Below are positions 53,910-57,220 of a DNA stretch of 64,000 bases, one piece after another. The DNA is from a virus (Duplodnaviria; Heunggongvirae; Uroviricota; Caudoviricetes). The notes beneath the pieces were generated by a model. The model worked only from the letters and a program-made list of their open reading frames with translations, was not told the origin of the DNA and made no database searches. Position 1 is the stretch's first letter; each line of letters starts with the position of its first letter. The translations under genes and the position numbers were made by a program. Where the stretch lies: the IMG/VR virus record IMGVR_UViG_2537561946_000006. The stretch is one strand, 5' to 3'.

Positions 53910-54492
53910 CTCTCCGCCACTTTATCAATGACTTATCTCCCGACTTCCCGTCTTGCTTTTCCTAAACAGAACAATCGTAGAATATTCTTGAAGGGTTAGA
54001 TCGTCACTGTTTTCTGTTCGATACTGTGACATTCAGCACTTGATTCGCTATGGATCTGACAGGAAGGTTTTGAGCGAAAATCTGCAGTTATTCAGTCGTT
54101 TTCTTATCGGTCACCATTATTCTTTTAGACATTGATCCTACAAAGCTGCCGCAAAGTTGGTGGTGGGAACTGAAGTTGCGTAGAGAAGGGGTCAATACCC
54201 GGAGGCAAACATGGGCTGGCAAAAGTGTAGCGGCATTAGGCGCAGCTATTTAGCCTAGTTATGTTTTATGAAAACTTGATATCATATAAGTGTCTTACTT
54301 ATTGGCTGTAAATAAGTTTTTCCTAAGGAATTGTTTCTTGAGTATCATTTGTAACTGTAACGGAATTTATAATCCTTTGCTTTATTGTTACGGTATTTTT
54401 TATCACACCCTATTTTTAGTGGTTTTTTATACTGAAGTTTGGCAAAGTGAACTTTATATACATATACTTCATCCTGATTTCAGTTAAATTGG

Positions 54493-55245
54493 GTGGATGA
54501 TATGGCAACTACATGTTCAGTTATATTGATTTTGGAGTCCTTTGATGTTTATTTCGGAAAAGAGAGTGTGTTTCTGGAGAGAGGTTCATCTGTACTTGTC
54601 GACTCTAGATCTAGAGATTTTTTCCTGACATATCCTGAAAGAGTGATAGTGGCGGATTTTGGCGCTGAGTTTATTAGTCGCTATTTGAAAGCTAATAACT
54701 TAAGGGATATTTCTGATTGTAGGGAATATCCATCTTATTTAAAAATAAACTTTGCTGACTTCAGTTTAATTAAAGGATTAATTAGTTGGGCTAATCACTG
54801 TGCTGAATACATAGAAATTTTTGATGAGTCTATTGCTTTTACATGTCTCTCTGCATTTTCTTCTGAAAAACAATTTGGAGTATTTCTGTTTGGATGTTTG
54901 AAAAGCACAGGGGCTAAAGTTAAAACGATTATTCATACGGATTTATCTGCACCATGGCGTCTTAAGGATATATCATCAAGATTATATCTCAGCGAAAGTT
55001 TACTAAAGAGGAAATTGAAAGAAGAGGGGGTATCATTCAGTAAGATCATACTTGATGAGAGGATGCAAATGGCTGAATATTTACTCAGCACTCGTTGTTA
55101 TCCTATTAGTAAAGTAGCTAAGGTCTGTGGTTATGCCAGTGTCTCATACTTTACTTATGTATTTAGACGTTATTTTGGTGTTTCTCCAAGTCAATACTCT
55201 CAGAGGAGTTCAGAAAGTAAAATTCTTACTCACCAGGGAATCTGA
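54493..55245 (+). CDS. AraC/XylS-family transcriptional regulator (AppY/Rns-like)
   Basis: 250 aa; C-terminal HTH ...ISKVAKVCGYASVSYFTYVFRRYFGVSPSQY; AT-rich. Confidence 0.8.
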   Translation: MDDMATTCSVILILESFDVYFGKESVFLERGSSVLVDSRSRDFFLTYPERVIVADFGAEFISRYLKANNLRDISDCREYPSYLKINFADFSLIKGLISWANHCAEYIEIFDESIAFTCLSAFSSEKQFGVFLFGCLKSTGAKVKTIIHTDLSAPWRLKDISSRLYLSESLLKRKLKEEGVSFSKIILDERMQMAEYLLSTRCYPISKVAKVCGYASVSYFTYVFRRYFGVSPSQYSQRSSESKILTHQGI

Positions 55246-55286
55246 TCATTGTTCTTGCCCCCTTATTTCCAGACAGGGGGTGTATC

Positions 55287-55652
55287 TTAAGTTAACGTTA
55301 CCCGCTGACGTCGATATTCTCGCGGAGAGCGATAACCCAACGCACTGTGCGGATGGTTTTCATTGTAATGTTCGATCGCCACTGCAAGATTATGCAATGC
55401 CGTTCTTACATTCGGTTTCGGCATGAACGCGATGTAGTCTTCCTTCATCGTTTTCACGAACCTTTCTGCAATTCCATTACTCTGAGGACTGCTGATTGCC
55501 GTTGTGCAGGGCTCCAGATTCAACTCTCTGGCGAACTGCCGTGTTTCATGCGCTCTATACGCTGAACCGTTATCTGTCAGCCACTGGATGGACTGTTCCG
55601 GTACTTTATCGCCAAAGCGTTTTTCTATCGCTCCTAACATGACATCCTGCAC
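55287..55652 (-). pseudogene. IS3-family (IS2-like) transposase OrfB C-terminal fragment
   Basis: ...[20 protein letters not shown]...[19 protein letters not shown]; upstream frame broken by stop. Confidence 0.7.
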
Positions 55653-56000
55653 TGTCGCTTTATCGTAACCTCCCGTGCTTGCGGCCCAGTCTATGGCTTC
55701 ACGATCGCAACAGTCCAGGGCGATTCATCTGGGCCAATCCTCGCTCATAACAGGCATTCACTTCAGTCATGGCAGAAAGGTATGCATGCTGGAGAAGTCG
55801 TGAAAGAAAAGAAGACTGCTGCGCCGTTTGTCGTCACGTTTATCTTCATTGGCTATGCAAGTCGTAATACAAGGTGGGACAAAACTGAGACACATAAGGC
55901 CTCGCAATGGCTTGCAAGGCTTTACATGTTTTGATGTGGTGGGACGTGTGAGCGCAGTGTTGATGGGGTAATACTTTGAATTAGAAGCGGATTCTTATAA

Positions 56001-56045
56001 TTCGTAATGCGAAGGTCGTAGGTTCGACTCCTATTATCGGCACCA
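56001..56045 (+). repeat. att core: 3' 45 nt of tRNA-Thr (thrW-type), no 5' half
   Basis: TTCGTAATGCGAAGGTCGTAGGTTCGACTCCTATTATCGGCACCA. Confidence 0.8.
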
Positions 56046-56059
56046 TTTAAATCAATAAA

Positions 56060-57220
56060 TTACCTCACATTTAAGTAAACCACGTTCACCTCTTGTGCCG
56101 TATTTGTGCCATTGCGACTTATAATCGCATCGATTTTGCTCGCGTGCTCGGTGAGATGCCCGGCTGAAAGGTGGGCGTATCTTTGAACCATTTCGAGAGT
56201 TTCCCATCCTCCCATCTCTTTAAGTGCAAGAAGAGAGACACCGGACTGAACCAGCCAGCTTGCCCAGGTATGCCTCAGGTCATGGAAGCGGAAGTTGCTA
56301 ATGCCTGCCCGCTTTAACGCTCCCTTCCATGCCTTGTTGCTGTCGGTTCTCATCTTCCTTACCGCTGCTGTTTTTGTTCCGTCGCTTCGGTAGGCAGGTC
56401 TGGTGTGGACAAATACCCATCTCTTATGGAGCCCCTGCTGTTTTCTTAATATCTGGCATGCGGTTTCGTTAAGAGGAACTCCGATCGCATTGCCAGCTTT
56501 TGTTTCATCAGGGTGCATCCATGCCATTTTCTTATCCAGATCGACCTGTGACCACTCAAGGTCTGTAACGTTGGAACGGCGAAGGCCTGTCGTGATTGCA
56601 AACATGACCACAGGGAAGAAATGAGGAGCAATTTCTGCAAACAGGTGCTTCGATTCCTCCTCTGTAAGCCATCTGATTCGTCCATTCTTAACGCGTGGTG
56701 TTGATATTTTGGGCGCCCTGTCAAGCCATCCCCATTCAACAGCTATATTGAGAATAGCGCGAAGTATTGCCAGATGCCGCGTCTTCGTTCCTTTGCTTGC
56801 CAGCTTTGGTTTATACTCCGGCACTGGCTTGCCAAGCCGCAAACACCTGTCCCGGCTCATCTCCCAGTTCAGGCGATGGCGGCGGTTTTCCATCCCGTCT
56901 ACCGCCTCCATTATTTTTTCTGTTGTTATGTTAGAGAGAATGGTTTCTCTGAAGTGCAACATCCAGAACGATATAATGCTCTTGTCATCATCAATGGACT
57001 TCTTATCCGATTTCTCACGCAGCCACCGTATGCAGGCTTCCTTGAATAGCTTTTTCGGTGATTCCCCGAGATTTTTTACTCTCCACGCTTCTGCTTTCAG
57101 ACGATCGTGAAATTCTTGCGCTTGCCTTTTGTCCGATATTTTAAGTGAGCGTCTAACTCTTGATCCATCTGGCGCGACGAAATCGCAGTGCCACGTGCCA
57201 CCGCGTAGTTTGATTGACAT
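56060..57220 (-). CDS. int: tyrosine integrase
   Basis: 386 aa, ...RFHDLRHTWASW...EMVQRYAHL; 3' end 14 bp from att core. Confidence 0.95.
   Translation of the reverse strand: MSIKLRGGTWHCDFVAPDGSRVRRSLKISDKRQAQEFHDRLKAEAWRVKNLGESPKKLFKEACIRWLREKSDKKSIDDDKSIISFWMLHFRETILSNITTEKIMEAVDGMENRRHRLNWEMSRDRCLRLGKPVPEYKPKLASKGTKTRHLAILRAILNIAVEWGWLDRAPKISTPRVKNGRIRWLTEEESKHLFAEIAPHFFPVVMFAITTGLRRSNVTDLEWSQVDLDKKMAWMHPDETKAGNAIGVPLNETACQILRKQQGLHKRWVFVHTRPAYRSDGTKTAAVRKMRTDSNKAWKGALKRAGISNFRFHDLRHTWASWLVQSGVSLLALKEMGGWETLEMVQRYAHLSAGHLTEHASKIDAIISRNGTNTAQEVNVVYLNVR

Follow-up and report, generated by a model that had tools for sequence, protein, structure and literature searches.

A serU-type lambdoid prophage apparently nested in a transplanted attachment site within a prophage composite at thrW

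How do the attachment (att) cores of two different tRNA genes come to lie about 2 kb apart in a single stretch of phage DNA? The question is raised by the IMG/VR virus record IMGVR_UViG_2537561946_000006 (Caudoviricetes), which was analyzed over a stretch of 64,000 nucleotides (the window; all coordinates are positions in it, and L-numbers denote the genomic loci compared with it). A first-pass annotation had reported a serU-type and a thrW-type core about 2.1 kb apart, and direct comparison bears this out. Positions 53858–53919 match the 3' end of Escherichia coli K-12 serU (tRNA-Ser, anticodon CGA; anticodon stem through CCA) at 62 of 62 positions, and positions 56000–56045 match the 3' end of thrW at 46 of 46, with a mismatch already at 55999; the gap between the fragments is 2.08 kb. 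Shuffled sequences yielded 0.00 matches to either core, i.e., neither is expected to occur by chance. ARAGORN detected no intact tRNA-Ser and no intact tRNA-Thr in the whole window, and Rfam, run in E-value mode over positions 50000–64000, called neither fragment a tRNA; over the Ser fragment, it returned only a spurious minus-strand match to “Plastid-psbl-rps4” and a short match to the T-arm of tmRNA. Because Rfam missed the fragments, their identity was established by comparing them directly with tRNA genes already annotated.

The key to the structure is a second Ser core, which the first-pass annotation had missed. A perfect match at 3721–3745 (0 expected by chance) is part of a full 62-bp block at 3684–3745, which forms a direct repeat with the block at 53858–53919 (60 of 62 positions identical) and flanks a nested element. 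The window very probably represents the junction region of a three-part prophage composite at thrW, built by ordinary tyrosine-integrase site-specific recombination. An Sp1-like prophage bound to thrW (prophage A) would carry in its right end a cargo of a fossil serU attR, the regulator gene patE, and a remnant of the insertion sequence (IS) ISEc48. A serU-specific lambdoid phage of 50.2 kb, with the effector genes nleB2, nleC', nleH, and nleF, would have used the fossil core as a secondary attB, giving rise to attL at 3684–3745 and attR at 53858–53919 by strand exchange in the anticodon stem-loop part of the core. The 46-bp thrW fragment would serve both as attR of prophage A and as attL of a further element, prophage B, whose integrase lies at 56060–57220. 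The nested element and its two arms comprise the following features.

3556–3683, plus strand: “X arm” of a pin/GIY-YIG phage, which abuts the Ser core and forms the left arm of the pseudo-attB (the 38 compared bases left of the core are those of the empty sites in L001 and L002)
3684–3745, plus strand: attL core of the nested prophage, a 62-bp serU 3' block with the phage-type variable arm (GTG..CAC)
3746–53857, plus strand: body of the nested serU-type lambdoid prophage (approximately 50.2 kb including the cores)
3798–4823, minus strand: serU-specific tyrosine integrase of the nested prophage, 341 amino acids (aa), 3' end toward attL (Pfam Phage_integrase and Phage_int_M)
53858–53919, plus strand: attR core of the nested prophage, a 62-bp serU 3' block with the host-type variable arm (GTA..TAC); the serU-type attR of the first-pass annotation
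53920–54197, plus strand: B' arm, a 278-bp copy of the chromosome natively downstream of serU, on the yodB side

All four flanks of the two cores have exact counterparts in other genomes. The left flank of attL is, base for base, the left flank of the empty site in L001 and L002, and the right flank of attR likewise has the bases of the empty site's right flank; sites without the phage, with one core between the same outer flanks, were seen at base level in L001, L002, and L003. The right flank of attL is the integrase-side flank at the genuine serU of Z1323HEC0423 (L006), and the left flank of attR is the P arm at the genuine serU attR of the same strain (L004). Upstream of 3684 lies a tail-fibre/pin/GIY-YIG module, which in other genomes directly precedes the Ser fragment. 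Two compensatory substitutions in the variable arm (GTG..CAC vs. GTA..TAC) are of the phage type in attL and of the host type in attR, as they are in the genuine lysogen Z1323HEC0423, and the 62-bp block of attL is identical to the 3' part of the serU gene reconstituted in that lysogen. Since the substitutions are distributed in this manner, strand exchange can be placed 5' of them, within CGGTCTCGAAAACCGGAGT, in the anticodon stem-loop.

The nested phage itself has a close twin at the primary site. Positions 3675–53919 align with the serU-resident prophage of Z1323HEC0423 (gene context mtfA-serU-int ... nleB2-nleC'-nleH-nleF) as a single collinear block of 50,245 bp, with 99.84% identity, 80 mismatches, and 1 gap. 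This degree of identity implies that the same phage occupies serU in one strain and a secondary site here. The 28 nucleotides left of the attL core match serU at only 10 of 28 positions, and no tRNA-Ser is reconstituted at attL, which indicates a secondary-site event and not integration into serU. The proposal of nested or secondary-site integration made at first pass is thereby upheld, since the 50-kb prophage whose attR is the Ser fragment is of the serU type yet resides within a thrW-bound prophage and outside the serU gene. How far apart the two tRNA genes are in K-12, which had been offered as a clue, has no bearing on the case, because the Ser fragment is a transplanted copy. In Z1323HEC0423, a further island (L004, 20920–27870; DUF6387, AlpA, H-NS-like, and RepL) takes the place of yodB after the genuine serU attR, so that serU itself carries a tandem array in that strain.

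The Ser piece at thrW originates from the serU locus. Positions 53858–54197 (the core plus 278 bp) are 97.06% identical to MG1655 serU together with the adjoining downstream DNA on the yodB side, with homology up to 54197/54198. This repeat of 340 bp has to be considered in weighing an assembly artefact, in which contigs would have been mis-joined via the repeated Ser core and flank, with the phage really located at serU and the Sp1-like site empty. The attR side indeed shares the 97%-identical repeat with the genuine serU locus, and no locus in the complete genomes searched, among which the window's own genome was not found, covers at least 80% of the window. However, an artefact would require two mis-joins, one of them through a 62-bp repeat with two single-nucleotide polymorphisms (SNPs), and the SNP pattern is exactly that expected of an Int product. 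Moreover, CD45 and Z1323HEC0067, which are independent complete genomes, show the same nested architecture with different phages, and a mis-assembled window is highly improbable. The diagnostic SNPs between 53951 and 54197 are all of the island type, with no switch from the serU-locus type within the repeat; homologous recombination or misassembly within the 340-bp repeat was rejected on this pattern.

The left arm of the pseudo-site points to a phage that integrates natively at serU. The right-end module of prophage A, to which this arm is adjacent, is composed as follows.

1–3555: right-end module of prophage A (Sp1-like, thrW-bound), with the gene order that precedes the Ser fragment in L001, L002, L003, L007, L010, and Sakai Sp1
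1–780: tail fibre gene
780–1382, plus strand, and 1354–1806, minus strand: tail-fibre assembly genes
2080–2670, plus strand: Pin invertase (Pfam Resolvase and HTH_7)
2731–3555, minus strand: LEM-3-like GIY-YIG gene (Pfam LEM-3_GIY-YIG)

A chimeric probe in which the GIY-YIG arm and the core were joined to the flank and its native continuation was covered to at least 80% in 13 genomes. At the genuine serU of MB15, baseplate and tail fibre genes, pinE, the GIY-YIG gene, and the Ser fragment are followed by yodB-zinT-msrQP, and the GIY-YIG arm abuts the Ser core at the genuine serU also in 12 other genomes. The continuity of arm, core, and flank into yodB identifies the pin/GIY-YIG phage as a native serU integrator. 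The Ser junction at thrW is best read as the genuine attR of this phage, transplanted together with 278 bp of the chromosome. In FDAARGOS_1077 (L003, 8001–8062), the pseudo-site matches serU for 4 bp more on the left (GGACCGGTCTCG) than in the window, L001, and L002 (GGGTCGGTCTCG); the different left extent points to at least two alleles of the fossil junction.

The same cassette of core, flank, patE, and ISEc48 remnant is present, with 98–99% identity, in the lambdoid phages ev099, mEp332, and PhiR70_1. In ev099 and mEp332, which were examined in detail, it is located in the b region, with a tail-fibre assembly gene on one side and attP and int of the phage itself on the other; 119 bp of a lambdoid serU-type P arm come before it and run into the 62-bp core and the 278-bp serU flank. 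Both phages possess a hybrid att site of P arm, core, and bacterial arm within their genomes, away from their own attP, and a donor configuration for such a captured attR exists at serU in MB15 and SerU-LTIIb. The ev099 integrase begins with the N-terminal sequence of lambda Int. As judged from these comparisons, the cassette represents a fossil serU attR fused to a patE moron that circulates among lambdoid phages; its first capture may have occurred either by an aberrant excision of the lambda-bio type or by recombination between prophages.

To the right of the pseudo-site, the interval between the two cores contains the following features.

54502–55245, plus strand: patE (EDL933 z0321, Sakai ECs0287), an AT-rich gene for a regulator of the AraC/XylS family
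55250–55719, minus strand: ISEc48 (IS3-family) remnant, C-terminal part of the transposase (Pfam rve and rve_3)
55724–55999, plus strand: attP-proximal arm of prophage A, left of the thrW core
56000–56045, plus strand: 46-bp thrW 3' repeat, probably both attR of prophage A and attL of prophage B (46 of 46 positions identical to thrW)

The entire block from 53857 to 56114 matches as a single piece with approximately 99% identity in many unrelated E. coli, including O157:H7, enterotoxigenic E. coli H10407, and TW10722. In these genomes, it is located at the thrW/CP4-6 locus, with the tail-fibre/pinE/GIY-YIG module upstream and either yagP'-paoDCBA-yagU or the integrase of another element downstream. 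Sp1-like prophages at thrW have this block as their conserved right end, and it is not a novel join. A conserved arrangement in unrelated genomes with an intact thrW directly upstream, which the first-pass annotation had set against its own proposal, is thus encountered in part: the interval is contiguous and conserved, whereas the intact thrW is located at the far end of the Sp1-like prophage, as in Sakai. The annotated right end of Sakai Sp1 consists of pinE, the GIY-YIG gene ECs0285, the Ser fragment, ECs0287, and a partial ISEc48, and the thrW repeat forms the boundary between Sp1 and Sp2. The left neighborhood of the thrW core is equally conserved, with only one or two differences from L001, L002, and L003 in the adjacent 75 bases; positions 55741–55934 are 87.6% identical to b-region or att-proximal DNA of phage 21 and lambda variants.

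The AT-rich AraC-family gene described between the cores is present at 54502–55245, 0.58 kb downstream of the insertion (GC content 35% vs. 50% for the window). Its product is identical to Sakai ECs0287 at 246 of 247 aa and has a C-terminal AraC helix-turn-helix (Pfam HTH_AraC, E=1e-16, plus HTH_18). ECs0287 corresponds to z0321/PatE on O-island 8, a prophage-encoded activator of acid resistance that represses the genes of the enterocyte-effacement locus (LEE) (PMC10877973). By its sequence, the gene in the window is PatE, with a predicted role in regulation. The neighboring remnant does belong to the IS3 family, but the label “IS2-like” was only approximately right; the corresponding repeat_region of Sakai is annotated as “ISEc48 Family: IS3 partial”, and the amino acid identity to the ISEc48 transposase is 96.7%.

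This remnant had given rise to the suggestion of an IS-mediated rearrangement that joined two prophage ends. More broadly, either an IS-mediated or a general homologous rearrangement might have joined the right end of a prophage resident at serU with the thrW region, and an IS3-family remnant between the two cores, another IS3-family element just past integrase B, and the 340-bp repeat shared by the serU locus and the Sp1-like island, which could support homologous exchange, would be compatible with such an event. The remnant, however, is internal to a block that is conserved at approximately 99% in hundreds of genomes without a nested phage, and both ends of the nested prophage are present in the window, 50 kb apart, with a 62-bp direct repeat at each. 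The outer flanks, taken together, give exactly the empty site, the homology at the left junction is limited to 62 bp, and the uniformly island-type SNPs provide no sign of a switch within the repeat. There is neither an IS end nor a target-site duplication at the junctions, and all variable junctions coincide with att cores. The suggestion finds no support in these features, and a rearrangement is extremely improbable.

How often the pseudo-site is empty or occupied was estimated with junction probes. A 301-bp probe centered on the empty pseudo-site was covered to 80% or more in at least 429 of 5426 complete E. coli genomes, and the occupied attL junction was found in 2 genomes (CD45 and Z1323HEC0067), a count that may be too low because the occupied-site probe requires a similar integrase-side arm. 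The immunity regions of the nested phages in these two genomes differ from each other and from that of the window, as do the gene contexts, and the nested phage of CD45 is only 91–98% identical to that of the window. On the attR side, CD45 shows the sequence nleH, nleF, Ser core, patE, IS remnant, thrW fragment, and yagP'. The differences among the immunity regions, together with an identity of 91–98% to the phage of CD45 as opposed to 99.84% to the serU-resident twin, argue for independent integrations at the occupied sites.

The same data bear on a scenario in which the nested state is ancestral. The “empty” Sp1-type sites would then have arisen by precise excision, the phages of the ev099 type by aberrant excision that included patE, and the window would be an old intermediate rather than a recent integration. 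The arrangement of P arm, core, B' flank, and patE in ev099 and mEp332, which is that of the right junction of the nested configuration in the window, agrees with this scenario. By contrast, the close identity of the nested phage to its twin at serU, as compared with the phage nested in CD45, and the rarity of occupied sites relative to the 429 empty ones speak against it, and the junction of GIY-YIG arm, core, and flank occurs at serU as a genuine attR, so that no excision is needed to account for the empty form. An ancestral nested state is very unlikely.

The second tRNA fragment is explained by a tandem array at thrW. The region to its right contains the following features.

56060–57220, minus strand: thrW-type tyrosine integrase of prophage B, 386 aa, 3' end toward the thrW repeat (Pfam Phage_integrase, E=3e-34)
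57404–58650 (approximate bounds), plus strand: IS3-family insertion that interrupts prophage B just past int (orfA at approximately 57468–57770, orfB at 57797–58636)
58651–64000, minus strand: early-left region of prophage B, a lambdoid remnant with genes for a PACE transporter and a LysR regulator, and ea22-like and TraR/DksA-like genes

That the thrW fragment lacks its 5' half in spite of an adjoining integrase had been considered peculiar. Both observations are correct, with the integrase only 14 bp away, and tandem arrays normally show such an arrangement. To its left, the fragment is bordered by the arm of prophage A, as in L001–L003; to its right, the bases are identical to those that come after the intact thrW in Z1323PEC0014 (L005), where proBA and thrW are followed by the same integrase, an IS3-family element, and a lambdoid remnant; positions 56040–64000 are 99.6% identical to this genome. 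The RFHDLRH...Y motifs of integrase B are intact. The 46-bp repeat can be interpreted as an internal att site of the array, attR of prophage A and attL of prophage B, and the 5' half of thrW is absent because the intact gene would be situated only at the array's proximal end, upstream of position 1, as it is in the analogous genomes of Sakai and TW10722.

The junction between A and B found in the window occurs also in FDAARGOS_1077, and internal thrW fragments flanked by integrases are present in Sakai (Sp1/Sp2) and TW10722. The integrase of prophage A in TW10722 shares 55% protein identity with integrase B and adjoins a further internal thrW fragment, whereas the intD pseudogene of Sakai Sp1 shows no nucleotide match to integrase B, so that these two are not close alleles. 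The further fragment in TW10722 (record 1198004, L018, approximately 29005), a thrW 3' end between the prophage A integrase and an island with another integrase and IS100, indicates that at least three elements are arranged in tandem at thrW in that genome.

Several points weigh against this reconstruction of the composite. The intact thrW and prophage A's left end, with the integrase of A, lie outside the window, so that the tandem array is deduced from analogous genomes; either A or B may have been the first to integrate. The occupied sites number only two, subject to the possible undercount mentioned above. Finally, RefSeq flags the serU-type integrase in related genomes as “frameshifted” (1051 nt in three independent genomes: L006, L007, and L010). 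The discrepancy is confined to the extreme C-terminus, with the catalytic tyrosine upstream of it, and the shared length of 1051 nt suggests a family-wide C-terminal difference from the reference protein rather than decay. In the window, the MGRRR N-terminus and the catalytic motifs HDLK...GHK...LIYDRK of the enzyme are present, as judged from an alignment with lambda Int, its activity is predicted, and it may well have catalyzed the integration. A dead integrase was also considered on account of the flag; the shift lies after the catalytic tyrosine and the HDLK...GHK...LIYDRK motifs.

The gene content of the nested prophage comprises a Xis-like DUF4224 gene, exo, dicB, a racR-type immunity region, a tRNA pair, genes for lysis, head, and tail, sodC, lom, and effectors. 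The effector cluster at the right end (49987–53144) includes an intact nleB2, a truncated nleC, and an intact nleF (52575–53144); nleH is frameshifted or interrupted by an internal stop in the identical twin prophage. While sodC and lom/ail are located upstream of the cluster, patE follows 1.4 kb downstream, which places effectors of the type III secretion system (T3SS) beside a regulator of the LEE. The tRNA pair, at 20364–20616, is situated upstream of the lysis/late region; the second tRNA is a tRNA-Arg(TCT), and the first is called tRNA-Met(CAT) by ARAGORN but tRNA-Ile in RefSeq for the identical gene in Z1323HEC0423. It is likely an ileX-type tRNA with lysidine modification. In the region of the truncated nleC and a tail-fibre-assembly remnant (51210–51420), there is a sub-threshold match to the Rfam family IS009 (58 bits vs. 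a gathering score of 117, E=3e-11).

Two further observations concern prophage B. The IS3-family element at approximately 57404–58650 has orfA and orfB of the frameshift type, occupies the position where the excisionase is expected, and is annotated in L005 as “IS3 family transposase, frameshifted”; its left end may resemble that of IS911. The insertion probably immobilizes prophage B. At 59479–60925, homology to L005 identifies a divergent pair of genes that encode a PACE multidrug/biocide efflux transporter (minus strand, 152 aa) and a LysR-family regulator (plus strand, 294 aa), which looks like AceI/AceR-like cargo inside the lambdoid remnant.

The components are already established: secondary att sites, capture of the specialized-transduction type, tandem islands at tRNA genes, nested islands, Sp1 and Sp2, PatE, and serU as a phage site. 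A close parallel is found in Sakai, where the lambda-like Sp1 and the P4-like Sp2 at thrW, as well as O-island 8 of EDL933 with patE, show the same right-end block from pinE to the thrW repeat, followed by a second integrase. Sakai, however, has an empty Ser site and, as its second element, a P4-like one whose int is on the plus strand, whereas in the window a 50-kb prophage occupies the Ser site, and the second position is taken by a lambdoid remnant with a different, minus-strand integrase. Lambdoid prophages integrated at serU (Sakai Sp14, the prophage of Z1323HEC0423, and SerU-LTIIb) share the integrase, the 62-bp block, and the P and P' arms, but the target in the window is not the serU gene, and no tRNA is formed at attL because the site lacks the 5' 28 nucleotides of the tRNA.

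The situation resembles the secondary attachment sites of lambda (Shimada et al. 1975, as cited in PMC6379469) in that Int mediates integration at a non-primary site, and it resembles excision of the lambda-bio type in that ev099 and mEp332 carry a hybrid P-O-B' att with a contiguous chromosomal flank. Classical secondary sites of lambda bear a weak likeness to the core and are used at low frequency; here, the site is a prophage-borne, perfect 62-bp copy of the core with its native B' arm. Nested islands and helper-embedded phage-inducible chromosomal islands, and the tandem islands identified by TIGER (PMC10111431), are similar in that they are nested with their own attL and attR and contain internal att sites. 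Helper-embedded islands, however, target a late gene of their helper and stand in a satellite-helper relation, whereas in the window a full-size phage occupies a captured tRNA-gene fragment in non-coding cargo DNA, with no helper relation evident. The modest twist lies in the secondary site, which duplicates the primary attB perfectly and is borne by a phage. The limited literature searched on phage integration at serU and thrW and on secondary or nested att sites yielded general precedents and no description of the Ser fragment of Sp1 as a usable attB, which is not proof of novelty.

Two tRNA att scars only 2 kb apart, an apparent anomaly, can thus be resolved as ordinary integrase biology, and the case is mechanistically ordinary though instructive. 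The “serU” signal at thrW in Sp1 of O157:H7 and in hundreds of other genomes appears to be a transplanted attB that is still usable. Prophage mapping or typing schemes that rely solely on the tRNA core would wrongly place this effector phage at serU and would also mis-delimit the composite as one element. It is a rather doubtful proposition that the patE-linked fossil attR in the b regions of lambdoid phages acts as a portable, functional attB or “landing pad”, and such use could be recurrent and selected or an occasional accident. If it were true, lysogens of these phages would offer serU-specific effector phages a second place to integrate, so that poly-lysogeny would be possible with serU already occupied, and Int-mediated cointegrates between phages could place T3SS effector cargo beside PatE, a regulator of the LEE and of acid resistance. 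The window would then be an example caught in the act and a plausible intermediate toward the succession of P arm, core, flank, and patE in phages of the ev099 type. Phage cargo may include a working attachment site for another phage family, and by this simple route nested, composite virulence islands could form in which nleB2, nleH, and nleF lie next to PatE.

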